A stretch of 64,000 bases of DNA from Candidatus Nomurabacteria bacterium (GTDB lineage Bacteria > Patescibacteriota > WWE3 > UBA101185 > UBA10185). The notes beneath the pieces are model-generated. The model was given only the letters and a program-made list of their open reading frames with translations, was not told the origin of the DNA and did not search any database. Made by a program: the position numbers and the translations under genes. This document shows positions 11,485-59,232 of this stretch, piece after piece (the first letter of the stretch is position 1; each line of letters opens with the position of its first letter). The stretch covers positions 103,601 through 167,600 of the forward strand of contig JACKGU010000001.1 of assembly GCA_020631855.1 (NCBI GenBank). The letters are read 5' to 3'.

Positions 11485-12177
11485 GTGAGCAGCATCACAG
11501 AATATATAAGAAGAAATTCATATGTTGTCAGTGCGATGGTCGGGCTTTTGATAGCGCTATTATTTACATTGTTTTTATTGTTTAATGCGGCACCGGAGAG
11601 CAAAAATATCTATTCAGATGATGCTTCGGATGGAACTAATAATGACAATGAGGGACCAAAGATGATATACGTCGACATAGGCGGAGCTGTTGCAAACCCG
11701 GGCCTCTACGGCTTTGAAGAGGGGGCTAGGTTGAATGATGTTCTTGTTCAGGCCGGGCCTTTTCTTGATAACGTTTCTTTTGATTGGGTTTCTAAGCAAT
11801 TAAACTTGGCCGAGCCCGTGAAAGATCACCAAAAAATTTACATACCGTTCGATTTTGATATACAGGCCGAATGTTCAGGAACGGTGGTTATAGATGAGAT
11901 TGTTTTTACTCCTCAGATCGATAATTCTTCGCGAAACAGCAATAATGAAAGGATCTCGGTTACTCCTGTTGTGGATGCTTCTGATGACGGCGATCCGCGG
12001 TTTGTAAATGTAAATACAGCTTCCGTCGAGGAGCTGGATAAGCTTCCGGGTATAGGAGATGTATATGCAGGGAGAATAGTTTTAAACAGGCCTTACGCTA
12101 ATCTGGAAGACTTAAAGACCAAAGCAGATCTATCTGACAGCGTAGTAAGCAAGATCTCAAGTTTAGTGGTTTTCTAG
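11485..12177 (+). CDS. comEA: Competence protein ComEA (SLBB domain plus helix-hairpin-helix DNA-binding domain)
   Basis: The C-terminal 'VNVNTASVEELDKLPGIGDVYAGRIV' HhH motif and the N-terminal transmembrane anchor are present. Confidence 0.8.
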   Translation: MSSITEYIRRNSYVVSAMVGLLIALLFTLFLLFNAAPESKNIYSDDASDGTNNDNEGPKMIYVDIGGAVANPGLYGFEEGARLNDVLVQAGPFLDNVSFDWVSKQLNLAEPVKDHQKIYIPFDFDIQAECSGTVVIDEIVFTPQIDNSSRNSNNERISVTPVVDASDDGDPRFVNVNTASVEELDKLPGIGDVYAGRIVLNRPYANLEDLKTKADLSDSVVSKISSLVVF

Positions 12178-26559: not shown

Positions 26560-26591
26560 CAAACCTATAACACTGTGGTAATATTTGAACA

Positions 26592-29572: not shown

Positions 29573-29688
29573 TTTCGTTACTTGAAACTACTTGTGCAAG
29601 CTAGTAGATGTGGTTTATCCAACATGTTGGGCTTTGCAATGCAAAGAAATTACAGCAAACCGCCTGCATAAGGTGTTGGTGATTTATA
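29567..29688 (+). repeat. Intergenic roughly 125 bp repeat element, copy D (its 5' end overlaps the TAA stop)
   Basis: TTTATAATTTCGTTACTTGAAACTACTTGTGCAAGCTAGTAGATGTGGTTTATCCAACATGTTGGGCTTTGCAATGCAAAG... Confidence 0.75.
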
Positions 29689-29743
29689 GATTCGGCAATG
29701 TTCGTTTGTATTAAACAGCTCTCTTTTTTGCTATCATTGTTTT

Positions 29744-31126: not shown

Positions 31127-31128
31127 GC

Positions 31129-32118
31129 ATGAAAGATTCTGCCCAAACAGCAAAGCCCCAAAATCATTTTATTTTCGATCCTTTAACCGGCGATGCTACG
31201 ATTATCGCTGTCAATAGAGCCAAAAGACCGGATCAAACCGGTTCGGTTGGAAGAAAAGATTCTGTTTCTAGGACTCCCGTTTCCTCCATAGTGAAAGATT
31301 CTGCAGAGGCCCCAAAGCCGAAACCTTGCCCTTTTTGTAAGGGCAACGAGTCTATGACGCCTGCAACTTTGTATCAGGATGAGGATGATTGGAACGTTCG
31401 TGTGTTTGAAAATAAGTTTCCGCTTTTGGAGAATCACGAAGTAGTAGTACATTCTCCTGATCATGATAAAGATATTGAAGATTTAAGTACAGACGAAGTT
31501 GTAAAGATTTTAAGGGCTTATTTAAATAGGCTTGGCATTTACAACGCTGAAGAAAAAGAAGTAATTATATTTAATAATCGCGGAGGAAAGGCAGGAGCCT
31601 CCCTAATGCATCCTCATTCTCAGGTAGTAGCTTCCAAAGGATTTCCTGGAACTATTGAGCAGGAGAAGAGCAGTGCCCTTCACTACTACAATTCGCATGT
31701 GATGTGTTATTGGTGCCATGAAATGGAAAAAGAAATAGTAAACAAACAGCGCGTAGTTTTAGAGTCCAAGCATTTTGTAGTTTATGTGCCCGAGGCGTGC
31801 CGATGGAGTTACGAAATGCGCTTGTTGCCGAAAAAGCATACACCGACTTTTGCTTATACTACTGAACCCGAACTATATGATCTTGCCGATGTGTTGCAAA
31901 AGGTTCTTAAAGCTTATAATCATCTTTTTGATAGGCCTGATAGAAATTTTTGGATACACACTGAAAGGTATGAACCTTACCATTGGCACATTGGGTTTAT
32001 CCCTCATATTAAAGTTTTTGGTGCGCTTGAGTTAGGCGCCGGAATATGGGTGAGTGATAAGGCCACCTCAGAGGACGCTGCCGCGCAACTTAGAGATGTT
32101 ATAGCTACTTTTAAGTAG
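31129..32118 (+). CDS. GalT-family (HIT superfamily) hexose-1-phosphate nucleotidyltransferase
   Basis: The zinc-knuckle 'CPFCKGNE' and the active-site 'HPHSQVVA' (HxHxQ) are present. Confidence 0.7.
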   Translation: MKDSAQTAKPQNHFIFDPLTGDATIIAVNRAKRPDQTGSVGRKDSVSRTPVSSIVKDSAEAPKPKPCPFCKGNESMTPATLYQDEDDWNVRVFENKFPLLENHEVVVHSPDHDKDIEDLSTDEVVKILRAYLNRLGIYNAEEKEVIIFNNRGGKAGASLMHPHSQVVASKGFPGTIEQEKSSALHYYNSHVMCYWCHEMEKEIVNKQRVVLESKHFVVYVPEACRWSYEMRLLPKKHTPTFAYTTEPELYDLADVLQKVLKAYNHLFDRPDRNFWIHTERYEPYHWHIGFIPHIKVFGALELGAGIWVSDKATSEDAAAQLRDVIATFK

Positions 32119-35983: not shown

Positions 35984-38900
35984 TTATTTTATGGTTATAA
36001 TCCACCAATCAAATTCTATATCTTCTGTTACCGGACTGTTGGTTTTAACAATAAAGTATTCTTTTTCAGCCTTTTCATATACGTATAGCACCTCGTTATA
36101 GGTATTGCTAGTTGGTGTTATTATGACCTTGGAGTTGGCATCTATTGATTTTGTTTCTATTTTTACCTCGGTACTTTCGGCTTTCAAGACCCCACTGCCG
36201 ACATAGTCGCTGTCTTTATCAAATACAAGCTCTGAAGTTTTGATTTGTGCCGCTTCAACCTCTCCCTCAATACGAACTGTTCCATCTGCTTCAAATAGAA
36301 TAGCGCCGTCCATAAAATCTATGTTTCCGGACAGATTCTTTTGGAAGTATATGGTTTGTAGTTCACATAGTTCTTCATTTAGGCTACCTGTTGCTTTGGT
36401 GTAACATGAAGGTCCAATAACACTAAGCTCGTTTGTTAGAGACTCAAGTCTAATGCTTCCAACTTGAAGATCTTTGGTAATTGTTAAACCACCAAGTGTT
36501 GTATCTCCTGTAACTAGGAAGTTTGCATCAAGGGTCATTGTTGTAGTACTGTCTTGAGTTTGAGTAGTAAGTCCAAGAGCTTCTGCGAATCCTTTAAAGG
36601 ATTCATATGTATCTTTAAGCTCTTGAATCTTGGAATCAATGTATGTGGTATCTTCAGGTGTGACTTCGATTGTATTAGTTTGAGTTAGATTGGTTTGAGT
36701 TTCCGTATCAACTTCAAGCTGTGCTAATTGTTCTTGCAGATCCTCGATCTTCTGCTCTTGTTCTTGGATACCTTTAATAAGGTAGGGGACTAGATGGTGG
36801 TATTCAATTGACCATGTGTTTGCGGGATCATCAGGTTTATCAACTACCTGCGGTAGATACTCATATACATCTTGAGCAATAAGCCCTGTTGCTCTTCCTC
36901 TATCTGCCCATTTTGTTCCTTCTTTCCAATCAAAATCAACAACTTCAAAACGATTAATTAATTCAAGTGCATTAAGATTTGATGTTTCAATATTATCTTT
37001 AAGTCTTCTATCTGATGCTGTAACGTTAATAGAAGCATTACCGATATACATAGTAGTTGAACCTGAACCATTTGACGAGTCATCAAGTAGATTAGCATCG
37101 ACCGCGTTACCTATATGAAAGCCTCCTCCTGCATATACAATATCTCCGACATCTAAGAAATCTCTAAAGTAGCTATAGCCGTTTGAAACTCCAACATGAA
37201 ACACTTCATCATAGATATCTCTAACCACAAAACTCTTACCTGATGTTCCTCCTGCATCAAGACGTAAATATCCATCTCCGCTACCGAAGCTTTCTGTATA
37301 GAGAGAGGTGCTCTTGCCGTAGCTGTCTTCCAGCTCAAGGTTTCCGACAACATGAAGCTCAGAGCCGGGGGTTGTTGTACCGATTCCAACGCGGTCTGTG
37401 CCTGCGTTGACATAAAAAAGAGCCGAGTTTGAGGACCCTCGAATGTTGAAATCGATATCCGTAGCCGCGGGATTAACATACATTATATCTGAGGTCCCTT
37501 CTGAAAGCCTTAGAAAAGCTGCTCCTCCTGCTACCACATCAAGCTGATCATCAGTAAAAGATAGGTAGGTATTAGCGTCCCCATTATGATATATGTACTG
37601 ATCTAAGCCTATATCTCCGGCAACATCAAGTGCGTAGTCTGGGGCGGAGGTTCCTGCACCTATTCTTCCGTTCGCGGCTACCGCGCTTAAAACTGTCCCG
37701 CCGGTGTCTTTCCACTCTTGAAGGTTCGAAGACTGGCTCGTAATACCTTTTACTGTCAAAGGCACGCCGGCTGAGTTTTGAGAGTGAATTGTCAATCCTG
37801 CTCCCGCACCTGAAAATAGTCCGTAGATTAAAGGAGTAGTTGTGCTTGAGTTTGCAATATATAGGGTATTTGAACCTCCCTCGTTATATCCTGCTTCATA
37901 TCCTAAGAATACGTTTGAACTTCCGTTTAACGAATAGCCGGCTCTTGATCCAACAATTGTGTTATAGTCAAGGCCGGTTCGAACTGTAAAATTCGCATAT
38001 CCGGCCATATAGCCCAAAAACGCATTCCTAGTTCCGCCAATTCGAGATCCAGACATTGCTCCTATTGATGTGTTTCCTGACTCTGTAGTATTGCCCAAAA
38101 ATACATAGCTTCCCACCCCGACATTACTGCCTCCGGAGGTATTTGCGGTAAAATTACTTGTTCCTATAACATTATTGCTACTTCCAGAAATGTTATTTTG
38201 AAGTGCGCCATTTCCTATTGCTACATTTGCAATTGCAGTTGTAGAGTAGAGCATTGCGTTCATTCCAATTGCGGTATTGTTATATCCTACGGTGAGGTTA
38301 GATAGTGTGGCTGCTCCAATAGCCGTGTTGCCACCAGCATTACCGTCAGGGTTTCTACCGTCGAGGTTATATAGGGCAGAGTGACCAATTGCAACATTAT
38401 TGATGCTGTATTTTGCTTTCTGCAATGTTCCGTACCCTATGGCAACGTTTTGAACACCGGTTTCGTTTGCATAGAGAGAAGCTCCTCCGATAGCAACATT
38501 GTACCCGGTGCCCGCATAGCTCATGCTTGCTAGAGAGCCGGAACCGATAGCTACATTTCTACTAGTCGAGACGGCGCTTCTAAGGGCGCTGTCACCCAAG
38601 GCAACATTTCCCGAGCTTGCTAGGCCTAGGTATTGCAGTGCGTTTGTTCCAAAAGCAAAGGCACCGTTCAGAGATCTTTGTTCGTTGACAATTGTTCCTG
38701 TGTCATCAAGCAGCACCACCGCTGCAGAGTTTTTAGTCACTAGTTTTACAGATACGTTATCTATTGATCCGTCGAAATCAGATGAGGGGGTAAATACAAG
38801 CCCGCCGCTTGCTCCTGCAGTAATAACCGGTGCAAAATTATTATTTGAATCATATGTAGTTAAATTTGGTGATTGTGCGCCATTTACTTTCACTCTTACT

Positions 38901-41900
38901 GTACCCGCAGTCATGTTTTTTATTTGAAACTGAACAACATACACAGATCCGTTTGAAAAAGAAATGGCCTGGCTGAGGTCGGCCGTTGCTCCGGCTGTAT
39001 GGGTAGCATATCCTGAAGCATTCCATGCCCAGTTTGTACCATATGTCCAATCGGAAGATGTTGCAAAGTCGCCGTTGGTTACCATTTCTGATCCAGGGGC
39101 AGTAATTGCCGACTTGCCCCTGAACGTAGATATGCCGGTATCAGAATCAACTGAAAAATAGTTTACGGCGGAACTATTTTGTACAGCTAAAGTTTTTGTA
39201 AATAGGCCTGCCCCATCTTTGCTAATACTGGCGAGTACTGTACCCCCGTTATTCTGCCACTCTTGCAAGTTAACGCTTTGCCCCGAAGCCCCTTTTACAA
39301 GAAGCCCTTTGCGAGCTGAGGTGGGGGATTCAATTTTTACTTGCGTTCCCGCATCTATGCTTGCGGTTCCGAAGGTAGAAACAGCTCCGCTGACAGTAAA
39401 ATAAGTCGAGTTGATATTTGTATAGGTAGCTTCTAGCGTGAGTTGCCCAGTGCCGTTCCTATATAAAAATGTATCAGACCCTAGAGCAATGCCTCCGGTT
39501 GCGGTAGTGTGGTTTGCAATTTCAAGTGCATGTGTTGCCGAGGTTGTTCCAATTCCAATATTACCGCTAGCATCGATAATGAAAGGAGTAGTGTCTGATC
39601 CTACATCGTTAACTCTAAAACTGTTTCCTGTACCTGTGTTGGTTATTGAAAATTCCTCACTACCATCTACTGCGATATCTGTACTTGCGTCAAGAGCCAT
39701 AGCATCTTTAAATTCAGTGAAGTCAAGAGAATCTGCAGTTATTGCTGTTGCTCCTATTGTACCTCCACTTAGTACGCCGGAAGAGGATGTCACTACCCCA
39801 TCAGATAATCCACTAAACGTTATTGTTCCGCTACTCGTGATACCTGCTGCCGCTATTATCTGCCCACTGCTATTTACCTGAAACAGATCTCCATTGCCTA
39901 CTGTTAATGCTGATGCGGGAGAGGTGTCCCCGATGCCGACTTTACCTGTTATTGTCATATTTGCAAGATATCCCCCTGAGTTTAGAACTCTTATATAACT
40001 GTCAGCATCATTTCTCCAAGCGTCAAGACCCAGCTCTGTCCTTGTTGCTCTAAATGTGCTTGTGCTTGAATCTCGAACAATAGAAGTAGCCTTACCGTTT
40101 ACGGTGTCAAAAAAGAATCTAACAGTACCTCCGTTGTCTCCTGCAATCTCGAGAGGATAGCTAGGGCTTGTTGTCCCAATCCCCACATTGCCGTTGTCTA
40201 AAATTACTACCTCACTTGTAGTATCGCCGTCAGGATCAAAGCCAAGATAATTACTGGTAGTGTTATATCCCAGGATAGCTTCATTGCCAGTATCACCAAT
40301 ATGAATACTCGATCCTTTTACAAATAATTCAGTCCAGCGAGAACTTGATGAACCAAGACTACTCACACCATCAGCCGCAGGCAAGAAATCATCAGAAGCA
40401 ATTAAGTCAGAACCGTTCCATCTAAGATATTCAGTCGCACCGTTTCCAAAATAGAGATAATTAGCCAACTCAATATCACCGGCCACGTCCAGTAGCTGGC
40501 CGGGACTGGCTGTTCCTATACCTACATTGCCCGAAGAATTTATGACCATTCTTTGTGTTCCAGAGGTTGTTGTGTTATTGGCAGCTGTAGTAAAGATAAT
40601 ATCTGTTGCAGCATTTAACAAAGAAGTGCCTCCGCCAAAATTTATAACATTTGTAGAAGTCCCGGACCCAGCATTAAAAATAGCAAATGGTTCTTCAGCG
40701 TTATTGTAGTGAGCAATTCCAAGTCGGGCATTTTTTGAAGTCGCGTCTGTTCTTGTTGTATATAAATTATCTGCCCCCAGTAAGAGTGAAACTGAACCGT
40801 TTGATATATCGAGTCCTGCACTAGGGGTATTCGTACTAATACCTACAAGGCCGGCAGTATCTATAAATAGTCTTTGAGTTCCATCTGTAAGTAAGGCAAG
40901 GCTTCGGGCCGACCCACCGCCGGAGCCTTTTGAAGTTCCAACACTCAACACATTCGAGCTCCAATAAAAATCACCACGTTCGTATGAGGTTCCCGAGGAG
41001 TAGGTATTATAGATTCGGAAGGACTGCGCATTTGTAGAGTTTCGAAGTGAAATGTTGTTTGCACCGTCGGAAAGTAAAAATGCACTAGGCCCTGTTGTGG
41101 AATTAAACCCAAGAGCATAGCCGGCTTGTATTGCTAACGCCGCAGTGGCATTGTTGATGCCTAGTAAATCGGCACCGGATTTTGAAAAGAATATTGCCGA
41201 CCCGCTTTGTCTCATACCTATTCCGGTTGCATTTCCAAAAGATAATGACGGGGCCGCTGCGGTTCCATCAGGCAGCAAAAGTTGCCCTGATGCTAGCTCC
41301 AAAGTACCCCCCGGCGTTGCGGTTCCAATGCCAACTCGGTGTGTGCTTGAATCAACATATAAATCATTTGTGTTTACTGTAAAGTCTCCGGTTCCGGAAA
41401 GTCCGATGTTGAAGTTACTCCCGCCCGCAGGATTAAAAGTTATCGCGCCGGTTGTTTGAGTAAAGGTTGTTGAGGCACCGTCAAGCGTGACACTAGTGCT
41501 TGCAATATTTAAGGCGCCGTCTACATTAAGATCTCCCGCTATAGTTAAAGTATTTCCGGACTCATAGGTGTCGTTTGCGTTTGATCTCAAAAAATCACTC
41601 CCGGCAAAAGATCCCAGCTGGTCAGCCGTTTTAGCATTAAATGCGTAAGGGACAGCTGCTAAAGTTTTTCTTGGAGAAAAGGTTTCTCCTTCTGAAAAGT
41701 CTCCGTTACCGCTAGGATCAAATTCAACCTCAATAAATAAAGATCCGCTGGTAAAATCAGGTCCCCCGTTCTGGTTACAGCTTGAGAAAGTTCCTCCGCA
41801 ATCTAGTTCTAATGTGAATACGTCGCCGAAGTCATCAAGCTCGACATCCGATTTTGTTTCTTGCCACACAAGTGTTCCTCCAGAAGAGGAAGTATATATG

Positions 41901-42163
41901 CTGACTCTAAAGTCGCATGTATCTGCGCCGCTTGTATTAATACAAGCGGCGTCCGAACTTGTTAAATTTGTGCCATCAGGGTTAACGATTTTTCCCTGGT
42001 AAACTAGGGCCTCGTTAATTGCAGCAAAAACTTTATGCCCAAAATTATTTAGATGATTGATAAGTAATAAAATAAAGAGTAAAGCCACAAATCTTGCAAC
42101 AGGCTTAGCCAAGCCCTTAGTTGCAAGTACTATGCGTTTGTAGGCAGTAGTTGTTAAGTTCAA
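35984..42163 (-). CDS. Giant (2059 aa) secreted/anchored fibre protein resembling a phage tail fibre, with GIGTxxP collar motifs, Gly/Asn-rich beta-helix repeats and a C-terminal peptidase-S74 intramolecular-chaperone domain
   Basis: An N-terminal signal-anchor is present. The collar motifs recur (RVGIGTATPGGTLELA, NVGIGTASPGQLLDVAGD, NVGIGTTSPSYPLEIAGD, RVGIGTTTPGSELHVVGN). The repeats are 'NVAIG..SL / NTAIG' type. The C-terminus carries 'SDRRLKDNIE...IEYHHLVPYLIKGIQEQEQKIEDLQ', which is the CIMCD cleavage/chaperone signature. Confidence 0.75.
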   Translation of the reverse strand: MNLTTTAYKRIVLATKGLAKPVARFVALLFILLLINHLNNFGHKVFAAINEALVYQGKIVNPDGTNLTSSDAACINTSGADTCDFRVSIYTSSSGGTLVWQETKSDVELDDFGDVFTLELDCGGTFSSCNQNGGPDFTSGSLFIEVEFDPSGNGDFSEGETFSPRKTLAAVPYAFNAKTADQLGSFAGSDFLRSNANDTYESGNTLTIAGDLNVDGALNIASTSVTLDGASTTFTQTTGAITFNPAGGSNFNIGLSGTGDFTVNTNDLYVDSSTHRVGIGTATPGGTLELASGQLLLPDGTAAAPSLSFGNATGIGMRQSGSAIFFSKSGADLLGINNATAALAIQAGYALGFNSTTGPSAFLLSDGANNISLRNSTNAQSFRIYNTYSSGTSYERGDFYWSSNVLSVGTSKGSGGGSARSLALLTDGTQRLFIDTAGLVGISTNTPSAGLDISNGSVSLLLGADNLYTTRTDATSKNARLGIAHYNNAEEPFAIFNAGSGTSTNVINFGGGTSLLNAATDIIFTTAANNTTTSGTQRMVINSSGNVGIGTASPGQLLDVAGDIELANYLYFGNGATEYLRWNGSDLIASDDFLPAADGVSSLGSSSSRWTELFVKGSSIHIGDTGNEAILGYNTTSNYLGFDPDGDTTSEVVILDNGNVGIGTTSPSYPLEIAGDNGGTVRFFFDTVNGKATSIVRDSSTSTFRATRTELGLDAWRNDADSYIRVLNSGGYLANMTITGKVGIGDTSPASALTVGNGDLFQVNSSGQIIAAAGITSSGTITFSGLSDGVVTSSSGVLSGGTIGATAITADSLDFTEFKDAMALDASTDIAVDGSEEFSITNTGTGNSFRVNDVGSDTTPFIIDASGNIGIGTTSATHALEIANHTTATGGIALGSDTFLYRNGTGQLTLEATYTNINSTYFTVSGAVSTFGTASIDAGTQVKIESPTSARKGLLVKGASGQSVNLQEWQNNGGTVLASISKDGAGLFTKTLAVQNSSAVNYFSVDSDTGISTFRGKSAITAPGSEMVTNGDFATSSDWTYGTNWAWNASGYATHTAGATADLSQAISFSNGSVYVVQFQIKNMTAGTVRVKVNGAQSPNLTTYDSNNNFAPVITAGASGGLVFTPSSDFDGSIDNVSVKLVTKNSAAVVLLDDTGTIVNEQRSLNGAFAFGTNALQYLGLASSGNVALGDSALRSAVSTSRNVAIGSGSLASMSYAGTGYNVAIGGASLYANETGVQNVAIGYGTLQKAKYSINNVAIGHSALYNLDGRNPDGNAGGNTAIGAATLSNLTVGYNNTAIGMNAMLYSTTAIANVAIGNGALQNNISGSSNNVIGTSNFTANTSGGSNVGVGSYVFLGNTTESGNTSIGAMSGSRIGGTRNAFLGYMAGYANFTVRTGLDYNTIVGSRAGYSLNGSSNVFLGYEAGYNEGGSNTLYIANSSTTTPLIYGLFSGAGAGLTIHSQNSAGVPLTVKGITSQSSNLQEWKDTGGTVLSAVAANGRIGAGTSAPDYALDVAGDIGLDQYIYHNGDANTYLSFTDDQLDVVAGGAAFLRLSEGTSDIMYVNPAATDIDFNIRGSSNSALFYVNAGTDRVGIGTTTPGSELHVVGNLELEDSYGKSTSLYTESFGSGDGYLRLDAGGTSGKSFVVRDIYDEVFHVGVSNGYSYFRDFLDVGDIVYAGGGFHIGNAVDANLLDDSSNGSGSTTMYIGNASINVTASDRRLKDNIETSNLNALELINRFEVVDFDWKEGTKWADRGRATGLIAQDVYEYLPQVVDKPDDPANTWSIEYHHLVPYLIKGIQEQEQKIEDLQEQLAQLEVDTETQTNLTQTNTIEVTPEDTTYIDSKIQELKDTYESFKGFAEALGLTTQTQDSTTTMTLDANFLVTGDTTLGGLTITKDLQVGSIRLESLTNELSVIGPSCYTKATGSLNEELCELQTIYFQKNLSGNIDFMDGAILFEADGTVRIEGEVEAAQIKTSELVFDKDSDYVGSGVLKAESTEVKIETKSIDANSKVIITPTSNTYNEVLYVYEKAEKEYFIVKTNSPVTEDIEFDWWIITIK
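36252..37333 (-). repeat. 1082 bp segment 100% identical to 47632..48713 (the shared 3' cassette of the two giant fibre genes, present as direct copies)
   Basis: Base-by-base comparison gives a constant offset of 11380. Identity breaks at 36251/47631 and at 37334/48714. Confidence 0.9.
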
Positions 42164-47363: not shown

Positions 47364-50300
47364 CTATTCAGATTTCAATACCCACCAGTTGAATGAAGAA
47401 TCTTCGTCTATTGTCTTTGATATGCTTACTTTGAAACTCTCGCTCTCTGTAATCTTACTAACATACAGTTGTTGTCCTTTGGTGTCTGTGGTTGGGGTTA
47501 TAAATACTATCGCATCTTTACTAATGCCCCTCACCTCTACTGTTACAGAACTTTCCCCACTCTTTATCGCGCTTTGTCCTATTGTTTCGCTATTTGAGAG
47601 ATACTTATAATCTTGCGCTGTTATGGTTTTAGCTTCAACCTCTCCCTCAATACGAACTGTTCCATCTGCTTCAAATAGAATAGCGCCGTCCATAAAATCT
47701 ATGTTTCCGGACAGATTCTTTTGGAAGTATATGGTTTGTAGTTCACATAGTTCTTCATTTAGGCTACCTGTTGCTTTGGTGTAACATGAAGGTCCAATAA
47801 CACTAAGCTCGTTTGTTAGAGACTCAAGTCTAATGCTTCCAACTTGAAGATCTTTGGTAATTGTTAAACCACCAAGTGTTGTATCTCCTGTAACTAGGAA
47901 GTTTGCATCAAGGGTCATTGTTGTAGTACTGTCTTGAGTTTGAGTAGTAAGTCCAAGAGCTTCTGCGAATCCTTTAAAGGATTCATATGTATCTTTAAGC
48001 TCTTGAATCTTGGAATCAATGTATGTGGTATCTTCAGGTGTGACTTCGATTGTATTAGTTTGAGTTAGATTGGTTTGAGTTTCCGTATCAACTTCAAGCT
48101 GTGCTAATTGTTCTTGCAGATCCTCGATCTTCTGCTCTTGTTCTTGGATACCTTTAATAAGGTAGGGGACTAGATGGTGGTATTCAATTGACCATGTGTT
48201 TGCGGGATCATCAGGTTTATCAACTACCTGCGGTAGATACTCATATACATCTTGAGCAATAAGCCCTGTTGCTCTTCCTCTATCTGCCCATTTTGTTCCT
48301 TCTTTCCAATCAAAATCAACAACTTCAAAACGATTAATTAATTCAAGTGCATTAAGATTTGATGTTTCAATATTATCTTTAAGTCTTCTATCTGATGCTG
48401 TAACGTTAATAGAAGCATTACCGATATACATAGTAGTTGAACCTGAACCATTTGACGAGTCATCAAGTAGATTAGCATCGACCGCGTTACCTATATGAAA
48501 GCCTCCTCCTGCATATACAATATCTCCGACATCTAAGAAATCTCTAAAGTAGCTATAGCCGTTTGAAACTCCAACATGAAACACTTCATCATAGATATCT
48601 CTAACCACAAAACTCTTACCTGATGTTCCTCCTGCATCAAGACGTAAATATCCATCTCCGCTACCGAAGCTTTCTGTATAGAGAGAGGTGCTCTTGCCGT
48701 AGCTGTCTTCCAGTTTAAAACTTCCAAGAACATGCAATTCGGCGCTAGGGCTAGTGGTTCCGATTCCAACGACCCCCTTTAGTAGTGTAGTAAGAATGCT
48801 GTCGTTTCCTAGTACAACGCTGTTGCTTCCGGCTCCGATAGCCCCAAATCCTATTACTACCTCATTTTCTCCGCCATCTGCTAATGCCTTAGTTTGCGAC
48901 CCGAGATACAAGGATGTAATGCTAGTTGAATTAGGACTTGCGCCGTCTGCCAAATATGTTCCTGCAAAGACCCCAATAGCGGTGTTCCAGTACCCTGTTG
49001 TGTTGTGATACAAAGAAGCTACGCCTGATGTTGTGTTGTAACTACCTGTAGTATTTTCGTATAGAGCTTGTTCCCCAAATGCGCTATTGCTTGATCCCGT
49101 AGAGTTTGTATATAAAGTTTCAAAGCCGACCCCGGCATTACTTTGTCCGGTTAAGTTAGAGTAAAGAGTTCGGTAGCCTGTAGCTATGTTTTGACCCCCC
49201 GTGCTGTTTGCTCGGAGAGCCTGGTGGCCGAGGGCAACGTTATAATATCCGTAAGTGTTTAAATATAAAGCTTCAGATCCGAATGCAATATTATAGTTTC
49301 CGGTAGTGTTTGAGGACAGCGCGTAAGCTCCAAAGGACGAGTTTTGACTGCCCGAAGTGTTTGCTTGCAAAGAGAAGTAACCAACTGCTGTGTTGTCAAT
49401 CCCTGTCGTATTTGTTGTTAACGAAAAGTATCCAACCGCTGAGTTTTGGCTTCCTGTAGTGTTTGAGTATAGAGCGTAAGATCCAAAGGAGGAGTTGTAG
49501 TTACCTCCTGTGTTTGTATATAAAGCCCCGGAACCTACAGCTGAATTTCCGTTCCCACTAACGTTTGAAAATAAAGCTTGATAACCTAAGGCTGCGTTGT
49601 CGCTGCCGGTAGTATTGTACCTTAAAGCCGTATAACCAACCCCAACATTATAGTTCCCTGTAGTGTTTGTACGAAGCGCATTGGTACCAAATGCAGAGTT
49701 ATAGCTTCCTGTTGTATTTTGTCTTAGCGTATAGGGCCCGACTGCGGTGTTGTAGCTCCCACTAGTGTTTTCATATAAAGCGAAATATCCCGCTGCTAGG
49801 TTATAGTCTCCTGTGGAGTTTGAGTACAAGGTAGAAGTGCCTAAAGCTGAGTTATAGCTTCCGGTAGTGTTTGAGTATAAGGCACTTCTTCCTATTGCAA
49901 CATTTGAGTTTCCTGTAGTGTTTGAATACAAAGCAGAATATCCAAATGCAGAGTTATAGCTCGCTGTAGTGTTTGAGTACAGTGCGCTACTCCCTACAGC
50001 AACATTAAAGCTTCCCGAAGTATTAAAGATTAGCGCGTCTCTACCGGTGGCAATATTGTCGGTTCCGACAGTATTTCTAAACAAAGCATTTGTTCCTGTC
50101 GCAATGTTATTGCTCCCGGTGGTGTTAAAATATAGGGCGGATATGCCTGAGGCAATGTTATAGTTGCCTGTAGTATTGGTGTATAAAGTAGTTCCGCCTA
50201 TGGCAATGTTGCCGGTTCCAATAGTGTTGTAATACATAGAATTGTTTCCTACAGCAACGTTGCTTCCCCCCGTAGTGTTTCTTCGGAGCGCGCTGGGACC

Positions 50301-52937
50301 AAATGCATAGTTATAACTTCCCGTTGTATTGGAAGATAAAGAGTCATTTCCTAGAGAAATATTACCTGTCCCTGTAGTGTTTGAGAATAAAGCTAGATAA
50401 CCGGCTGCAATGTTATTGCTGCCGCTTGTGTTTGAATATAGCGCGAAAGCTCCGGCGGCAATATTATAATTTCCTGTAGAGTTGGAGTATAGAGCACTAT
50501 TTCCGAATGCAGTGTTGAAACTTCCTGTAGAGTTAAAGTACAAAGCATTGTAACCCGTTGCAACGTTAGAGTTTCCTGTGGTGTTCGAGTAGAGCGCATA
50601 AGATCCGGTAGCAATATTAGCAGGACCTGAAGTATTGCTAGCCAAGGCATAGTCTCCGGTAGCAATATTATAATTTCCTGTAGAGTTAAAGTATAGAGCA
50701 TAAAATCCCGCAGCAAAGTTATAGCTTCCTGTGGTGTTTGAGTATAGAGCGTGATCTCCTGTGGCAATATTATTGGCCCCTGAAGTATTTGAATATAGAG
50801 CACTTCCTCCTACAGCAATGTTCCGATTTCCTGTAGAGTTAAAGTATAGTGCGTTGTAGCCTGCAGCAATATTGTTTCCTCCCGTAGTGTTAAAATACAA
50901 TGCGTAGTTACCTAGAACCAGGTTGTAACTCCCTGTGGTGTTGGAAGCTAGTGCATGTTTACCTAAAGCCACGTTGCTGACTCCTGTGGTGTTGTTGAAC
51001 ATAGCAAAGGGGCCAAAGGCTAAATTGTCATTACCGGTAGTGTTTGAATATAGGGCCGAGCTTCCAAAGGCTGAGTTATAGTTTCCGTTAGTGTTTGAAT
51101 ATAGGGCGGCGGCTCCTAGGGCGGAGTTATAGTTTCCGCTGTCAATATTGCTCAGGGCCCCTGCACCTACTGCTGTATTTGAGCGACCATACGTTAAAGT
51201 ACTCAGTGCGTTATAGCCCAGCCCGGTGTTATAGCTCGCAATACTAGCATCCGGAGAACCCTGTCCTAGAGTAAAATTTCCGCTATTCTCCCCTACAAAT
51301 GTGTTTTGTCCTGTATTACCTTCCCAGTGATAATTGTGGATAAAACTTGCGGACTCTTTATATATGACTCCTGTAGTAGGGGAGCTTGTATTTTCCAATA
51401 CCATTGCTCCTACTAAATCTAGCGCTTGCGCAGGGGCAATTTTTCCTATCCCCACATTACCGCTTGAGTCTATGACAAAAGGTGAAGTATCTCCCGCGGA
51501 GTCGTTCACTAAAAACGATACCCCTGTTCCTGTATTTGTAAGTGAGAACTGATTCGCTCCTGTAATAGCTATATCTGTCGAATCGTCGAGGGTCATCGCA
51601 TCTTTAAATTCAGTGAAGTCTAAGCTGTCGGGACCGACAGAGGCAGCCCCTACAGTTGTCCAGGCCAGAGTACCATTACCGTCATTTGCAAGTACATAGC
51701 TGGCGGCCCCGGCTTGTGTGGTTGGCCATGCGTAAGTAACATTATTTATTTTAATAATGTCCCCTGAGGCATTAACTTGAAATTGAGATGCTGTGCCAAC
51801 CGAAAGAGGGGACTGTGGGTTATTTGTATTTATTCCCAAGGCATGTGTTGCGCTGTTATAAAATAGATACGCTGTGTCTTGCATGAAACCGCTTCCCGAA
51901 CCAAAAATTATGCCGCCTTCATCTGCAGTAGATCCTTCTAAAAAATTTAGTTCTTCGGCGGTAGCATTTACATTTGTTCCTCCTATACTCCAGGTGCCTC
52001 CTATGGCCAAAGTTCCGTTTAAATTAAAATTATCTTCGTACGTGAAGTCTGGCACCAGATTATTACCGTCTATAATGTTGTCTGCAAGAGCATTCGCATT
52101 TAGAGTTCCAATAATGTCGCCTGTAAGTTCCAACGAGTTTTCAAGAGAGTTTTTAGAGACCGCATCTATTGCCAGCAAGCCGTTTATTGTCGATGCTCCG
52201 GTAAAGTTTATGGTTGTAGTTGAGACGCCCCCTTCAACTGTTGCCGGGCCGGTGATATTTAATGAGCTCAATATGTTTGTTGGTACATTTAGAGTAAATC
52301 TGAGTTCAGGAGATCTGGCTCTTGCGGCTAAAACCTCTGCCTCTTGTCGTTGTATTCTTTGAGTGCCTTTTTCATCTCCCCGCTTATAGTTTGCTATATA
52401 TTTTTTTATTGATAGTGCACTTTGTATATTTTTATCGGGAGTTTCGCGGCTTAGATTATTGAAATCTTTTGCAATTGTTATTGCCAACAAAGCAGCACCT
52501 ATTACAACTGAGGCCAAAATAGCTTTTTTAAATACATTGTTTTTTTGTGTTTTTGCCACTGCTCGTTTTAAGGGGCCCTGTTTAAATTTAACCTTTTTCA
52601 CAATATTTTTAGCTTCTGTTTTAGCAGTTGATTCTGTTGGTTTGCTAGCACTGCTTTCGCTAAGATTTTCTTTGGGCCTTGTATTTATGGGAACATATGC
52701 AAGGTTTTCGATCGGGTTTTTTGTCGTATTAAGTCTGTGATTTTTATAATTTATTATGTCATTGACATTAAAACGCCTGTATCCGTTAGCATCTCTGTTC
52801 TCTATGATTATTGCTTGTTCTGCTAACCTTCTTACGGTAGAGGAGGAGACCCCCAGTATTTTAGCAGCCTCCGAAACAGATAAGAGATTGTTTGATTCAG
52901 AATTGTTTGATGTGTTTTTAATATTTTGGGCAGACAT
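47364..52937 (-). CDS. Giant (1857 aa) protein with an N-terminal excisionase-type HTH, a transmembrane helix, GIGT collar motifs, about 40 copies of a 17-aa 'ALYSNTTG..N.A.G' beta-helix repeat, and a C-terminal peptidase-S74 chaperone domain
   Basis: 'LLSVSEAAKILGVSSSTVRRLAEQAIIIENRDANGYRRFNVNDII' matches HTH_17. The transmembrane helix is 'AILASVVIGAALLAITIA'. A long periodic Gly/Asn/Thr repeat array follows. The C-terminal 360 aa are identical to giant protein 1 through the 'SDRRLKDNIE' CIMCD motif. Confidence 0.75.
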   Translation of the reverse strand: MSAQNIKNTSNNSESNNLLSVSEAAKILGVSSSTVRRLAEQAIIIENRDANGYRRFNVNDIINYKNHRLNTTKNPIENLAYVPINTRPKENLSESSASKPTESTAKTEAKNIVKKVKFKQGPLKRAVAKTQKNNVFKKAILASVVIGAALLAITIAKDFNNLSRETPDKNIQSALSIKKYIANYKRGDEKGTQRIQRQEAEVLAARARSPELRFTLNVPTNILSSLNITGPATVEGGVSTTTINFTGASTINGLLAIDAVSKNSLENSLELTGDIIGTLNANALADNIIDGNNLVPDFTYEDNFNLNGTLAIGGTWSIGGTNVNATAEELNFLEGSTADEGGIIFGSGSGFMQDTAYLFYNSATHALGINTNNPQSPLSVGTASQFQVNASGDIIKINNVTYAWPTTQAGAASYVLANDGNGTLAWTTVGAASVGPDSLDFTEFKDAMTLDDSTDIAITGANQFSLTNTGTGVSFLVNDSAGDTSPFVIDSSGNVGIGKIAPAQALDLVGAMVLENTSSPTTGVIYKESASFIHNYHWEGNTGQNTFVGENSGNFTLGQGSPDASIASYNTGLGYNALSTLTYGRSNTAVGAGALSNIDSGNYNSALGAAALYSNTNGNYNSAFGSSALYSNTTGNDNLAFGPFAMFNNTTGVSNVALGKHALASNTTGSYNLVLGNYALYFNTTGGNNIAAGYNALYFNSTGNRNIAVGGSALYSNTSGANNIATGDHALYSNTTGSYNFAAGFYALYFNSTGNYNIATGDYALASNTSGPANIATGSYALYSNTTGNSNVATGYNALYFNSTGSFNTAFGNSALYSNSTGNYNIAAGAFALYSNTSGSNNIAAGYLALFSNTTGTGNISLGNDSLSSNTTGSYNYAFGPSALRRNTTGGSNVAVGNNSMYYNTIGTGNIAIGGTTLYTNTTGNYNIASGISALYFNTTGSNNIATGTNALFRNTVGTDNIATGRDALIFNTSGSFNVAVGSSALYSNTTASYNSAFGYSALYSNTTGNSNVAIGRSALYSNTTGSYNSALGTSTLYSNSTGDYNLAAGYFALYENTSGSYNTAVGPYTLRQNTTGSYNSAFGTNALRTNTTGNYNVGVGYTALRYNTTGSDNAALGYQALFSNVSGNGNSAVGSGALYTNTGGNYNSSFGSYALYSNTTGSQNSAVGYFSLTTNTTGIDNTAVGYFSLQANTSGSQNSSFGAYALSSNTTGNYNIAFGSEALYLNTYGYYNVALGHQALRANSTGGQNIATGYRTLYSNLTGQSNAGVGFETLYTNSTGSSNSAFGEQALYENTTGSYNTTSGVASLYHNTTGYWNTAIGVFAGTYLADGASPNSTSITSLYLGSQTKALADGGENEVVIGFGAIGAGSNSVVLGNDSILTTLLKGVVGIGTTSPSAELHVLGSFKLEDSYGKSTSLYTESFGSGDGYLRLDAGGTSGKSFVVRDIYDEVFHVGVSNGYSYFRDFLDVGDIVYAGGGFHIGNAVDANLLDDSSNGSGSTTMYIGNASINVTASDRRLKDNIETSNLNALELINRFEVVDFDWKEGTKWADRGRATGLIAQDVYEYLPQVVDKPDDPANTWSIEYHHLVPYLIKGIQEQEQKIEDLQEQLAQLEVDTETQTNLTQTNTIEVTPEDTTYIDSKIQELKDTYESFKGFAEALGLTTQTQDSTTTMTLDANFLVTGDTTLGGLTITKDLQVGSIRLESLTNELSVIGPSCYTKATGSLNEELCELQTIYFQKNLSGNIDFMDGAILFEADGTVRIEGEVEAKTITAQDYKYLSNSETIGQSAIKSGESSVTVEVRGISKDAIVFITPTTDTKGQQLYVSKITESESFKVSISKTIDEDSSFNWWVLKSE

Positions 52938-53077
52938 AAAACTTTATCAAATACCGCTATGTAGCAATTTGATAACCAATCTAATAATAAGTAAATAATA
53001 GTTCGATGTCAAATGATTATATCTGTCAAAAAGGTCAAGTTATTGACTTGTGATGCCTGTTTGCGTATGCTTTTTAT

Positions 53078-53932
53078 ATGCAGGTTCTGCCCGGAAACTT
53101 TGATTTTTTTTCAAGTTTAATATCCAATTCGAAAAGTAGCTTATTTCGTATTATATTACAGTATTTCATAGTATCTCTTATCTATTTTATTTCTACATAC
53201 AGTGTCATATACTCGCAAACAGTTTTGGATAATGGGGTAGGTATTTCAGTGGAAGTTCCTTACAGCAGTATTCAGGGATCTTTTCCCGATCCGGGATCGA
53301 TCGTTAGCTTTCGAGACGGTTTGTATTCGTTGTCAAGCGCTGAATATGATAGTAATGTCATAGGTGTAATACCTTCCGATTCTGTTATTACGATTAACGA
53401 TGATTCTTTATCAAGCAGCATTTTTGTCATGACAAGCGGTGAAACTTTCATAAAAGTATCTGGTGCGGGTGGAAATATTTTAGAGGGAGATTATATAACA
53501 TCTTCGGATGTTTCGGGTGTGGGCAAGAAGGCAGAGACAAGCGGGCAGGTGGTTGGTATCGCCTTAGAAAGTCATGATTTCGCATCTACGGAAGAGGTGT
53601 ACGATTTATATTCTTATGTAACTATCCGCTCTGTGTATTTCGATGATGCCCTAAAAGTAAATTTAATGGAGCTTTTACAAAATGGTTTTAGAGTTCCGTA
53701 TTTAACTCCCTTAACAACCTTAAGATATATTCTTGCCTCTTTAATAGCCGTTTTTTCTTTTATAGGTGGTTTGAGGCTGTTTGGTAAAACATCAACTAAC
53801 AGCATTGAGGCTTTAGGGAGAAATCCTTTGGCAAGTAGCGTTATTAGGTCTACCGTAGTTTTTAACTTTATACTGACCGCAGCAATCATATTAGCAGGTT
53901 TATCGATTTCTTATTTAATTTTAGTATTATAA
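53078..53932 (+). CDS. Membrane protein at the atpB/atpE position. Its C-terminal two-helix hairpin resembles an F0 c-subunit (loop 'ALGRNPL', compare ARQPE) and also carries 'GLRLFGK' (compare the a-subunit stator motif LRLFGN), but no carboxylate is present
   Basis: The genomic position is immediately upstream of atpF-H-A-G-D-C. Hand alignment to the E. coli and PS3 c-subunits places Ala/Thr where the essential Asp/Glu sits. A possible internal start at ATG 53666 would give an 89-aa hairpin protein. Confidence 0.35.
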   Translation: MQVLPGNFDFFSSLISNSKSSLFRIILQYFIVSLIYFISTYSVIYSQTVLDNGVGISVEVPYSSIQGSFPDPGSIVSFRDGLYSLSSAEYDSNVIGVIPSDSVITINDDSLSSSIFVMTSGETFIKVSGAGGNILEGDYITSSDVSGVGKKAETSGQVVGIALESHDFASTEEVYDLYSYVTIRSVYFDDALKVNLMELLQNGFRVPYLTPLTTLRYILASLIAVFSFIGGLRLFGKTSTNSIEALGRNPLASSVIRSTVVFNFILTAAIILAGLSISYLILVL

Positions 53933-53936
53933 GAGT

Positions 53937-54671
53937 ATGCCCATTTATACTTTGATACAAAATAATAATATCTGGATCCTATTTGTTTTTGAAATTATTA
54001 TTCTTTGTTTATTCTTTTCAATAATATACAAGGCTATAAAATTTTTATTAGTCAGGGCCGAGCTGTTTGGTTCGTCTGATTTAGAGAAAAGTTTAAGTTA
54101 CGATAAAGCCTCTAAAATTATTGAATACGCTCAGCGACGGGCTATAAAAATTTTAGCCAGGGCTAGTATTGACGCCGAAAAGAAATTGCGCGGAGCTACG
54201 AAAGTTAATAAAGATCTCCAGGAAGAGCTTTTCCAGAATTTAAATAGGGTTTATGTAAGTCATATAAAAGAGTTTGAAGGGCTGTCTGAATCTTTGCTGT
54301 TGAATTACAAAGCCGTACTGCAGAGGGAATCTGCGGTTGGAGCCCAGGTATTAGAGGAGATGGGTGCTAGTGTTGAGGAGATGGTTAAAGCCGAAGGTAA
54401 AGAATTTAGAAAAAATCTGGAAAGCCGAACTTTGTTGGCCGAGGAGAAGTTATCCAATGAAATTGACGAAGAATATAAAAAAGTTAAAAAAGAAATCGAA
54501 TTATATAAGGAAAGTCGTCTAAAGGAGGTGGAAGAGAAAGTTAATGCTCTCCTATATTCCATAATTAGTCAGTATATTAGTAAAGATATATCTGTAACCA
54601 TTCATGAGGAGTTAGTAAAAGCTCATTTTGATCGTTTAGTTCAAGAGTTACAACTAAAGAAAAAAGTATGA
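53937..54671 (+). CDS. atpF: F0 subunit b-like (N-terminal transmembrane helix plus long charged coiled coil)
   Basis: The call rests on architecture and on position between the c-like gene and delta. Confidence 0.5.
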   Translation: MPIYTLIQNNNIWILFVFEIIILCLFFSIIYKAIKFLLVRAELFGSSDLEKSLSYDKASKIIEYAQRRAIKILARASIDAEKKLRGATKVNKDLQEELFQNLNRVYVSHIKEFEGLSESLLLNYKAVLQRESAVGAQVLEEMGASVEEMVKAEGKEFRKNLESRTLLAEEKLSNEIDEEYKKVKKEIELYKESRLKEVEEKVNALLYSIISQYISKDISVTIHEELVKAHFDRLVQELQLKKKV

Positions 54672-55126
54672 AAATCCCGTCTATTTATACAAAAGAAACA
54701 TTAGATCAAATAGTTTTTGATCTCTCTTCTTTAAGACTTTCTTACAACCCAAATGATGAAAAAGGGTTTAAGCAGAAGTTGTTAACTAAGTTTTCAAGCC
54801 AATCAGCTGCGTTTTTTTTGGAAGTTTTGGAAAATGTTCCCTTCGAGGATATTCCGAAAATATTGGATGAATTTGAAAAGTTCCTTGGTTCTCTTCGTGT
54901 AGTAACTTTGGTTTTAGCATTTGCCCCGCGTCCCGAGTTTATACAGGAGATTCATAACCGTGTTTCTAAAATTGTGCCGGAGGCTTGTGTATTGGATATA
55001 GTTGTTGATGGTGCCGTGGTAGGAGGTTTTTCCATAGATTTTTCGGGCAAGTTTTTCGATTTTACCCTTGCTCAAGATCTTATCAAGAGAGATCTATCGG
55101 AAGAGCTCAAGTCTTGTAGCCCATGA
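54668..55126 (+). CDS. atpH: F1 delta (OSCP) subunit-like
   Basis: The C-terminal 'LDIVVDGAVVGGFSIDFSGKFFDFTLAQDL' is a delta-like motif. The gene sits immediately before atpA. Confidence 0.55.
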   Translation: MKIPSIYTKETLDQIVFDLSSLRLSYNPNDEKGFKQKLLTKFSSQSAAFFLEVLENVPFEDIPKILDEFEKFLGSLRVVTLVLAFAPRPEFIQEIHNRVSKIVPEACVLDIVVDGAVVGGFSIDFSGKFFDFTLAQDLIKRDLSEELKSCSP

Positions 55127-56588
55127 AAAATTATAATTTTTATCTAAAAGAATATGGCGAAATAGGTCATGTGGAAAAGATTGTTACACCTATTGTTGAA
55201 GTTGCAGGTTTGCCTTCTTGTACTATAAGTGAGATGGTTGTTTTTGAAGACGGCTCTTTAGGAGAGGTTATTGCGGTAGATCAAGAAAAGGCAACCGTAC
55301 TTTTATATGAGCATCGTAATTTGGACGTAGGTCAGAGAGTCGCTAGGACCGGCTCCGGGCCGACCGTAAAATATTCAGAAAGCCTTTTTGGTAGCATGGT
55401 TGACTCGTTTGGAGATGAAATTGCATTAAGCACAAAAAGCAAAAGTTTAGAAAGCGATTATGTTGATTTGCAAATTTACACTTCAGCTTCTGATATATCC
55501 ACCCGAAGTGTTGTTTCTGAGCCATTTATTACTGGGGTTACGCTTATAGATTTGATGACGCCTCTGGGACGAGGTCAAAGGGAGTTACTAATTGGAGATA
55601 GAAAAACAGGTAAAACCTCTTTTGCATTGCAACTACTTCTTGCGCAAAAAGACAAAGAGTCGGTTAATATATATGCTTGTATAGGAAAAAATAAGTCAGA
55701 GGTTCAGTACGTAAAAGATTTTTTGATTAAAAACGATCTGCTCAAAAAAACAATAATTGTCGCCTCTTTTTCTACTTCAGCAGTAGGTAAAATATATTCT
55801 ACTCCTTACGCTGCAATGAGTATTGCAGAAAAACTCTCCAAAGAAGGAAAAAACGTCGTTCTGGTGCTGGATGACATGTTAAGCCATGCTAAATACTACA
55901 GAGAGATAAGCTTGCTGGCTAATATTTTTCCGGGTAGAGATTCTTATCCGGGAGATATGTTTTACGTTCACGCCAGGCTTTTAGAAAGGGCAGGTAATTT
56001 TAACAACGGCACATCGATTACGTGCTTTCCAATAGTTTCTACTGCAAACGATGAACTTTCCGGTTATATTGAGACAAACCTTATGTCAATGACTGACGGA
56101 CATCTCTTTTTTGATAGGGGCAGGTTTTACGAAGGTTTGCGTCCGGCTGTGGATCCTCTATTGTCAGTAACACGAGTTGGGAGACAGACTCAAAATTCTT
56201 TGAGGTGGGCTATAAATAGAGAATTAAACAGTTTTTTTGTGTTACACAAAAAAACAGGGGCCTTTATTCATTTTGGAGCCGAAGTTAGCGAAGGTGTAAA
56301 AGCTACTATTGGAATGGGGGACCGTTTGAATATTTTGTTTGCACAGCCCGCCCAGGAATCATACACGCTAGAACTACAAATGCTAATGCTTGTTCTTGTT
56401 TGGAGTAATTATTTAAGCAATATTTCCGGAAACGATGCTCTTAAAAAGAGACTTATTGAAATAAAAGAGTTTTATGAGAGCGATAAAAATTTTCAAAATA
56501 TAGTTTTGGCAGCAGTTGCTGAATCGAAAAACTTTAATGAATTAATAAGGAATATAATTGGTGCAGTTGCCAAGTTTGGAATAAAATA

Positions 56589-56589
<1 letters not shown>
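55123..56589 (+). CDS. atpA: F1 ATP synthase alpha subunit
   Basis: 'GRGQRELLIGDRKTGKTS' (Walker A) and 'PGRDSYPGDMFYVHARLLERAG' are present. Confidence 0.9.

Positions 56590-59232
<2,643 letters not shown>

Follow-up and report, generated by a model that had tools for sequence, protein, structure and literature searches.

In metabolic reconstructions of the Candidate Phyla Radiation (CPR, or Patescibacteria), an operon with F1 ATPase genes is routinely counted as an F-type ATP synthase, and synthesis driven by the proton motive force or reverse proton pumping is discussed. Here we analyse one such operon, seven genes at positions 53078 to 59232 (forward strand) of a 64,000-nt stretch of contig JACKGU010000001.1 from a Candidatus Nomurabacteria bacterium of the WWE3 lineage. 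We refer to the whole stretch as the window. The closest description is that of Kantor et al. 2013 (PMC3812714), who reported for the complete genome of WWE3 RAAC2 that the "a, b, c" genes beside the ATPase have no homology to known subunits, and that the putative c resembles a membrane protein in the ATPase operons of OP11 and WWE3. They left function, direction and ion open. A literature search for descriptions of such a system returned only this remark; as far as that search shows, the oddity noticed in 2013 has not been resolved since. Outside the CPR, mycoplasmas carry the Type 2 (G1) and Type 3 "F1-like X0" ATPases (Beven et al. 2012, PMC3369863; Toyonaga et al. 2021/2025; Berlureau et al. 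2026, PMC12994834). One protein of their gene clusters combines a signal peptide and a large ectodomain with two transmembrane (TM) helices at its C-terminus; the clusters have no ion coupling through subunits a and c. They are required for the MIB-MIP surface system, and they drive the gliding of M. mobile through giant Gli "legs".

The operon in the window is, very probably, an F-type ATPase of the WWE3/Microgenomates branch of the CPR in which a protein derived from subunit c is no longer coupled to ions. It begins with a 284-aa reading frame (53078-53932), which we call the c-fusion gene. On the same strand follow genes for the b subunit (53937-54671; 244 aa, with one N-terminal TM helix and a long helical stalk), a delta/OSCP-like subunit (54668-55126; 152 aa, with a shortened N-terminal domain), F1 alpha (55123-56589; 488 aa, Pfam ATP-synt_ab 3e-63), F1 gamma (56589-57542; 317 aa, PF00231 1e-21), F1 beta (57539-58996; 485 aa, Pfam 4e-65) and epsilon (58993-59232; 79 aa). 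The genes abut or overlap, their reading frames are intact, and there is no space for a further gene within the operon. A first-pass annotation, made from the letters of the window, had already read the genes b, delta, alpha, gamma, beta and epsilon as present in the normal order, with an epsilon reduced to its N-domain and a single 284-aa frame standing where a and c are expected. Pfam, NCBIfam and family profiles agree with that order, the 284-aa frame does head the operon, and the PF02823 match of epsilon (7.8e-13, residues 3-78) covers only the beta-sandwich N-domain.

For comparison we assembled 86 related loci, which together with the window make 87 sources, and analysed them by tblastn and clustering of open reading frames (ORFs). 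The b gene has no Pfam match; a profile built from 23 orthologues matches ATP synthase b in the Protein Data Bank (PDB) with a best E=7e-8, and this match takes in the N-terminal TM helix. The same protein also weakly matches SctL, the stator of type III secretion systems (E=9e-4, NCBIfam). The third gene is a weak OSCP match in Pfam (1.2e-6), and its family profile finds OSCP/delta in the PDB at E=9e-8, over the C-terminal domain only (OSCP residues 74-185). Alpha falls below the NCBIfam cut-offs for atpA, and beta scores 435 bits against TIGR01039, slightly under the cut-off of 463. The F1 catalytic motifs are intact in 67-74 orthologues (about 70 loci). Alpha keeps the P-loop GDRKTGKT (GDRxTGKT across orthologues) and the Arg-finger motif SVTRVG, and beta keeps GG[AS]GVGKT, GERxREG and a SELSEED-like loop in 69-74 orthologues. 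Members of the epsilon family are 79-123 aa long, with a median of 88, and thus generally lack the inhibitory C-terminal helices. Judged by these matches, the operon encodes both F1 and a real peripheral stalk (b, delta), that is, the alpha3beta3-gamma-epsilon head with intact catalytic residues and the stalk by which an F1Fo ATP synthase is recognised.

In canonical enzymes the delta N-terminal domain and the alpha N-terminal helix bind each other. In the window both partners are shortened, the delta N-terminal domain and, apparently, the alpha N-terminal helix: the alpha P-loop starts at about residue 155, some 14 residues earlier than in E. coli, where we take it to start at about residue 169.

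The C-terminal part of the c-fusion protein (residues ~206-284, positions 53693-53932) is a helical hairpin which, on profile and fold comparison, we take to be a true, remote homologue of the F-type c subunit. The full protein has no match in Pfam and does not reach the curated family-model threshold for PF00137, and just two of 33 relatives match ATP-synt_C, at E=0.021. Residues 220-282 match the NCBIfam model for F0F1 subunit c (NF005608) at E=1.6e-4, with 22 bits against a cut-off of 128, and nine relatives carry the JGI label COG "subunit c/K". Compared with the PDB, the single sequence finds a cyanobacterial c subunit at E=0.03, and a family profile of the hairpin alone finds solely F-type c subunits (best 4bem_A, E=2.4e-4). 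In hhalign, 68 columns align with four canonical c subunits (E=3.9e-5, probability 70%). In the AlphaFold model (mean pLDDT 87.7), the hairpin is above 95, with helices at residues 211-248 and 250-283, and Foldseek superposes it on c-ring chains with TM-scores of 0.75-0.88 and an rmsd of 1.2-2 Å. The first-pass annotation had aligned the hairpin with the F0 c subunit by eye and proposed a search with hidden Markov models (HMMs) as a check. Profile, profile-profile and fold comparison uphold the likeness, and the HMM similarity is present in the NCBIfam model, under its cut-off and with no Pfam counterpart. The suggestion that the protein might be unrelated to the ATPase does not survive, as its gene stands first in the operon, and is conserved there, in more than 80 loci.

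What the hairpin lacks is the carboxylate. Every alignment places Ala at the position of D61 (E. coli) or E62 (Spirulina). Among 159 distinct hairpins, drawn from database matches and the related loci, the D61-equivalent position (+20) is F, I, V, A, L or G, so the earlier reading that the essential Asp61/Glu56 has been replaced extends to the relatives. Neither membrane helix holds an Asp or Glu in any of the 159, except for a single Glu that replaces a conserved Asn. This Asn263 is otherwise nearly invariant, and intramembrane Thr and Ser residues are conserved. The loop between the helices (E244-A-L-G-R248-N-P250) is invariant at E, G, R, N and P. In canonical enzymes, the cytoplasmic loop of the c subunit contacts gamma and epsilon. 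Going by its residues, the hairpin cannot bind coupling ions in the known way. With the F-type c subunit (PF00137; Spirulina c15, 2wie; A. woodii c2, 4bem) it shares the two-helix form, the loop E-x-x-G/A-R-Q/N-P, the first-gene position in an operon with b, delta, alpha, gamma, beta and epsilon, and a predicted topology with both termini outside. It differs in having no membrane carboxylate, in the signal peptide and 150-aa extracellular domain fused to its N-terminus, in the replaced Gly-rich motif of helix 1, in the a partner that was not found, and in a score below the Pfam threshold.

Two further proposals about the hairpin were rejected. The stretch LRLFGK in helix 1 had been likened to the stator motif LRLFGN of subunit a; its Arg is unique to the window sequence among the 159 hairpins, with S, Y or T in the relatives, and we regard the resemblance as due to chance. 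An internal ATG at 53666 had been proposed to yield a separate, c-sized product of 89 aa; the corresponding Met197 is not conserved among relatives. Of the description "degenerate or non-canonical rotor", the second half stands, in that the protein is a c derivative that keeps the gamma/epsilon loop and has no carboxylate; the first does not fit a family of 789 clusters with 10 invariant columns in the alignment of relatives.

We looked for subunit a and for an ordinary c in six-frame translations of the window and the 86 loci (1.28 Mb), with two queries whose sequences may not be exact: an HMM built from four c sequences, and subunit a of E. coli. The HMM picked out the fusion proteins alone, and subunit a of E. 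coli matched nothing. An a subunit (PF00119) with the stator Arg, the mark of an ion-translocating F1Fo, was thus found neither in the operon nor in the 64-kb window nor in the 86 loci, which agrees with the first-pass remark that recognisable a and c are missing from the operon. The multi-TM ORFs of the window encode a ComEC-type competence protein (12177-13346, forward strand; Pfam Competence, 3.7e-40), a 12-TM protein with TPR repeats, a YgaP-like protein and an M50 peptidase. ORF clustering across the 87 sources found no multi-TM family conserved near the operon. An ion path by way of an acidic or polar residue in the TM helix of b was considered as an alternative and rejected: Glu19 is not conserved, and the helix has no conserved polar residue across the family.

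The N-terminal part of the c-fusion protein places the rest of it. Residues 1-47 (positions 53078-53218) form a signal peptide or TM helix, modelled as helical over residues 21-46. In the alignment of relatives, the hydrophobic h-region ends in A-x-A followed by Q, as is typical of a cleaved signal peptide. Cleavage would put the following domain outside the cell, and this in turn gives the canonical c topology, with the loop inside the cell and both hairpin termini outside it. In the NCBI gene model, the same protein is 235 aa long, about 49 codons shorter, with a start near an in-frame TTG (codon 50); this model omits the signal peptide kept in all relatives.

Next comes the ectodomain (residues ~48-205, positions 53219-53692), a beta-rich domain of about 150 aa with the motif GDxITSSxxPGxGxKAxxSGxVxGxALE. 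The first-pass annotation had called it a Ser/Gly-rich soluble region; it is instead modelled by AlphaFold as a confidently folded beta domain (pLDDT >90), with strands spanning residues 52-186. A Foldseek search of the PDB finds phage cement or decoration proteins (8pkh at E=1e-3; also 8hdt, 5wk1 and 7kmx), from Borrelia phage BB1, Pam3, TW1 and XM1. In BFVD the matches are much stronger (E 1.7e-11 to 1e-9, rmsd 2.2-3.3 Å over about 140 columns), and there the domain lies within phage tail, tail-fibre, "preneck appendage barrel" and Mtd-N proteins. Weak Pfam matches among the relatives, XM1_gp53 in 7 of 33 and Phage_cement_2 in 3 of 33, point the same way. As modelled, the ectodomain has a fold of the phage tail-fibre, appendage or cement type.

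A second connection to fibres was unexpected: clustering linked the c-fusion family with the gene next door. This gene (47364-52937, reverse strand) runs divergently from the operon and encodes a giant protein of 1857 aa, with an N-terminal cytoplasmic MerR/HTH_17-type domain (residues 18-65) and a TM helix (~138-160), followed by a long ectodomain rich in repeats and, C-terminally, a Peptidase_S74 chaperone domain. Pfam matches are Peptidase_S74 2.2e-13 (residues 1515-1572), MerR 3.5e-7 and HTH_17 5.4e-6. The protein has no N-terminal signal peptide; 1700 aa lie beyond its one TM helix. S74 intramolecular-chaperone domains are a typical feature of the tail fibres and spikes of phages. Across 57 loci, the giant genes upstream agree in their N-terminal ~250-450 aa and vary in the rest. 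Of the 78 loci whose upstream DNA reaches 1.5 kb or more, an iterated profile places a member of the giant family at most three genes upstream of the c-fusion gene in 64, and directly upstream of it in 43; the rplA-rplK-nusG genes on the downstream side, by comparison, are shared by only about 30 loci. Six loci also have giant proteins with an internal match to an HMM of the c-fusion ectodomain, at E 1e-10 to 1e-29 (L001 1379-5551 and 8141-9739, L020 2205-9089, L033 1992-9617, L063 907-5220, L064 2589-8723, L073 71-9733). By this match, ring protein and fibres have an ectodomain module in common. The fold of the ectodomain and the linkage to the giant gene are described here for the first time, the first-pass annotation having missed both.

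The giant gene and the operon share a divergent intergenic region of 140 bp (52938-53077) with promoter-like sites on both strands. One lies on the plus strand (TTGACT-17-TATGCT, 53043-53071) and one on the minus strand (TTGACA-17-TATTAT, 53012-52984), the latter agreeing with the consensus at 11 of 12 positions. Both are consensus matches only, and the promoter and terminator scan gave no more sites in total for the scanned region than for shuffled sequence. The -10-like TATGCT ends 7 nt before the ATG at 53078, and the mRNA may be leaderless or nearly so. The window also holds a second giant (35984-42163, reverse strand; 2059 aa) that likewise ends in a Peptidase_S74 domain, from which it follows that giant fibre-like proteins have paralogues in this genome. 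The 12-TM protein mentioned above (33686-35908, reverse strand; 740 aa, ~12 TM helices and C-terminal TPR repeats) adjoins this second giant.

The family is large. A database search for relatives with clustering at 90% gave 92, of which 90 are 235-295 aa long and two weaker matches are about 160 aa. A profile search of 1.84 billion representatives returned 789 clusters (50% identity) at E<=1e-30; nearly all of the 150 clusters listed are 230-325 aa long, the two exceptions having 199 and 446 aa. When GTDB was scanned with one genome per species, 228 genomes proved to have a relative. The 80 fetched loci are named WWE3, Levy-, Shapiro-, Ames-, Gottesman- and Woesebacteria, together with evidently mislabelled metagenome-assembled genomes. 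Nine records (L055, L058, L060, L064, L066, L069, L070, L072, L075) are titled "Gammaproteobacteria" or "Alphaproteobacteria" and many of the closest are titled "Saccharibacteria"; these titles are probably errors of automatic taxonomic labelling. Where a locus has sufficient DNA, its genes almost always run c-fusion, b, delta, alpha, gamma, beta, epsilon, and the order is identical in five loci reached via database relatives. Over the 87 sources, the b family is found in 79, delta in 68, gamma in 77 and epsilon in 63. Together with the intact catalytic motifs, this conservation argues for an enzyme under selection and not for a relic.

Several loci depart from the common layout or have added genes. 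In L065 (10791-12512) and L069 (10826-12547), an additional 573-aa single-TM protein is encoded between the c-fusion and b genes. In L041, L042 and L047 the c-fusion/b pair lies among glycosyltransferase genes, beside a family of ~390-aa single-TM proteins. Parts of diversity-generating retroelements adjoin or enter the operon in L001 (14745-15119), L002 (10816-11835) and L003 (10079-11494): a bAvd/23S_rRNA_IVP gene lies between gamma and beta in L001, RVT_1 lies downstream of the operon in L002 and L003, and bAvd is also present in L003.

The subunit identities are solid, and from them we infer a mechanism. The hairpins would form a ring on the gamma/epsilon foot, and the ectodomains a crown on the outer face of the membrane, in keeping with canonical c subunits, whose N and C termini lie outside. 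ATP hydrolysis would turn gamma, epsilon and ring against an alpha3beta3 head held by b and delta. With no a/c ion path, the machine would neither make ATP from an ion gradient nor pump ions, and its torque would be delivered outside the cell. The likeliest recipient would be the giant membrane-anchored fibre protein next door, or else the cell envelope, and the purpose may be to move, tension or reset surface fibres used in attachment. Taken as a whole, the proposal of a rotary machine that hydrolyses ATP, is uncoupled from ions and performs its work on the cell surface seems to us evenly poised between right and wrong. That its output is mechanical work on the surface or a fibre is a plausible suggestion that falls somewhat short of even. 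The most specific form, a transmembrane mechanical motor so far unrecognised, in which F1 torque passes through an ion-blind c ring to a phage-fibre-type crown that cranks or turns giant trimeric fibres, is tentative, and we lean against it for now.

A number of points weigh against this proposal. Ring formation, rotation and contact between crown and giant are steps that we infer only. The helix-1 packing motif GxGxGxG of canonical c rings is not retained, and without an a subunit there is nothing evident to hold the b TM helix beside the ring. A canonical atpB-atpE pair or a second operon may lie elsewhere in the genome, since the search covered the window and the loci. In three loci (L066 3913-7855, L072 4345-9014, L076 5628-10184) b and delta are absent and the operon passes at once from the c-fusion gene to alpha, gamma, beta and epsilon, alpha being shorter at 429-472 aa, so that the stator model is not universal. 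In three others (L041 9665-11267, L042 9992-11395, L047 2933-4456), only c-fusion and b are found, with no F1 genes in the 10-kb flank. Finally, 14 of the 78 loci have no giant-family gene within three genes upstream, and gene adjacency may partly reflect inherited synteny.

The 14 loci without a nearby giant also speak for a different target, in which the machine acts on the envelope (wall, S-layer or membrane remodelling) or on some other surface partner, and the giant gene is merely a syntenic neighbour. The giants with a MerR-HTH domain have paralogues, such as the second S74 giant in the window, and some loci place c-fusion and b among glycosyltransferase and PEGA-type genes, both of which would suit such a role. 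We nevertheless consider it unlikely. The N-terminal module of the giant stays beside the operon across lineages whose c-fusions are only 32-48% identical, the linkage exceeds that of the ribosomal-protein neighbours, and the ectodomain module is common to the c-fusion and the giants.

The giant gene next to the operon can also be read as cargo. FliH-FliI-FliJ (SctL-SctN-SctO), which serves type III export in flagella and injectisomes, resembles the operon in that an F1-related ATPase and a b/delta-like stator are re-used for something other than ion-coupled ATP synthesis, and an export, assembly or unfolding motor of this kind would handle the giant protein, with the c-fusion as a membrane dock and not a transmitter of torque. 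The weak SctL match of the b-like protein would agree with this, as would a giant that has 1700 aa to place beyond its one TM helix and no N-terminal signal peptide. Against it, an alpha/beta hetero-hexamer with gamma, epsilon and a c-type loop is a rotary architecture, not that of a homo-hexameric export ATPase; FliH-FliI-FliJ is a homo-hexamer without a c ring that docks on an export gate, and none of these components is seen here. No export-gate homologue is conserved in the neighbourhood, and an outward crown has no obvious use for an export dock. We rate this rival as quite improbable.

Less probable again, to the point of being very unlikely, is that the machine is still an ion-coupled synthase or pump, either with a, and perhaps a normal c, encoded elsewhere, or with ions bound by a cluster of Ser, Thr and Asn in place of a carboxylate. 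The near-invariant Asn263 and the conserved intramembrane Thr and Ser would supply such a cluster, and the search for a and c was confined to the window and the loci. The coupling position is free of D and E in all 159 hairpins, and neither a nor a free c occurs in the 1.28 Mb around 87 operons. The TM helix of b offers no conserved polar residue, and we know of no F-, V- or A-type rotor that works without a membrane carboxylate. Kantor et al. 2013 (PMC3812714) described the complete WWE3 genome RAAC2 without a recognisable a or c.

That the operon is the decaying relic of a former ATP synthase, without coupled function, is extremely unlikely: the a subunit and the carboxylate are lost, b/delta or F1 genes are missing from some loci, and some Microgenomates have no ATP synthase at all (one complete genome is so reported), yet the catalytic motifs are all intact in about 70 orthologues, the hairpin keeps invariant columns, the family has hundreds of clusters, and the reading frames are tight, overlapping and intact.

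An ion-uncoupled machine that works on the cell surface would have its nearest counterpart in the mycoplasmas. The F1-like X0 ATPases also have F1-like alpha, beta, gamma and epsilon without ion-translocating a and c, and only ATP hydrolysis is expected of them. They too are tied to surface proteins, genetically and functionally, where the CPR tie is one of gene linkage to the giant. The mycoplasma "Protein 5" (MSC_0620, MMOB1650) resembles the c-fusion protein in architecture, with a signal peptide, a large ectodomain and a two-TM C-terminal hairpin; against NCBIfam, the c-fusion matched no model besides subunit c. The stalk-less arrangement of L066, L072 and L076 is also that of the mycoplasmas. 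Unlike these systems, the CPR cluster keeps b and delta and has neither the 12-TM "Protein 1" nor the cytosolic "Protein 2", its hairpin is recognisably derived from c, its candidate partner is a MerR-HTH/TM/fibre giant, and it belongs to another phylum. Alpha and beta score 271-388 bits against the MSC_0618 and MSC_0619 models, whose cut-offs are 520-850, and these scores are below or equal to those for canonical atpA and atpD. We therefore rejected membership in the mycoplasma Type 2/3 family, given the scores under the cut-offs, the b and delta that are kept and the absence of a 12-TM protein. Because the phylum is a different one, the CPR machine probably arose independently.

The operon of WWE3 RAAC2 (Kantor et al. 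2013, PMC3812714) is, judged by its description, of the same type as ours. The homology of its c, the missing carboxylate, the fold of the ectodomain and the linked giant gene are not reported there. Elsewhere in the window (24949-32118, forward strand), a run of large genes including glycogen-synthase-like N-termini resembles the glycogen operon of RAAC2 in the same paper, a likeness that would suit a window of WWE3 origin.

If the ring lacks an ion site and no a subunit exists, the inference of an ATP synthase is wrong for a large part of the radiation, affecting at least 228 species genomes and hundreds of protein clusters. Cells with an ion-uncoupled enzyme would energise their membrane otherwise, for example by a pyrophosphatase or by transporters. 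In this operon, nature would have released a c ring from ion transport and given it an external domain, and the lineage would be only the second, after the mycoplasmas, in which an F1 motor appears to have been turned to a new use at the cell surface. Since b, delta and a c that can still be recognised are kept, the operon could reveal by what route machines of this kind arise out of a true ATP synthase. Should the crown indeed crank giant fibres, the WWE3/Microgenomates CPR would have an ATP-driven engine of attachment, retraction or motility, convergent with the gliding and MIB-MIP motors of Mycoplasma. The link to the giant fibres gives a testable handle on how these episymbionts hold on to their hosts.

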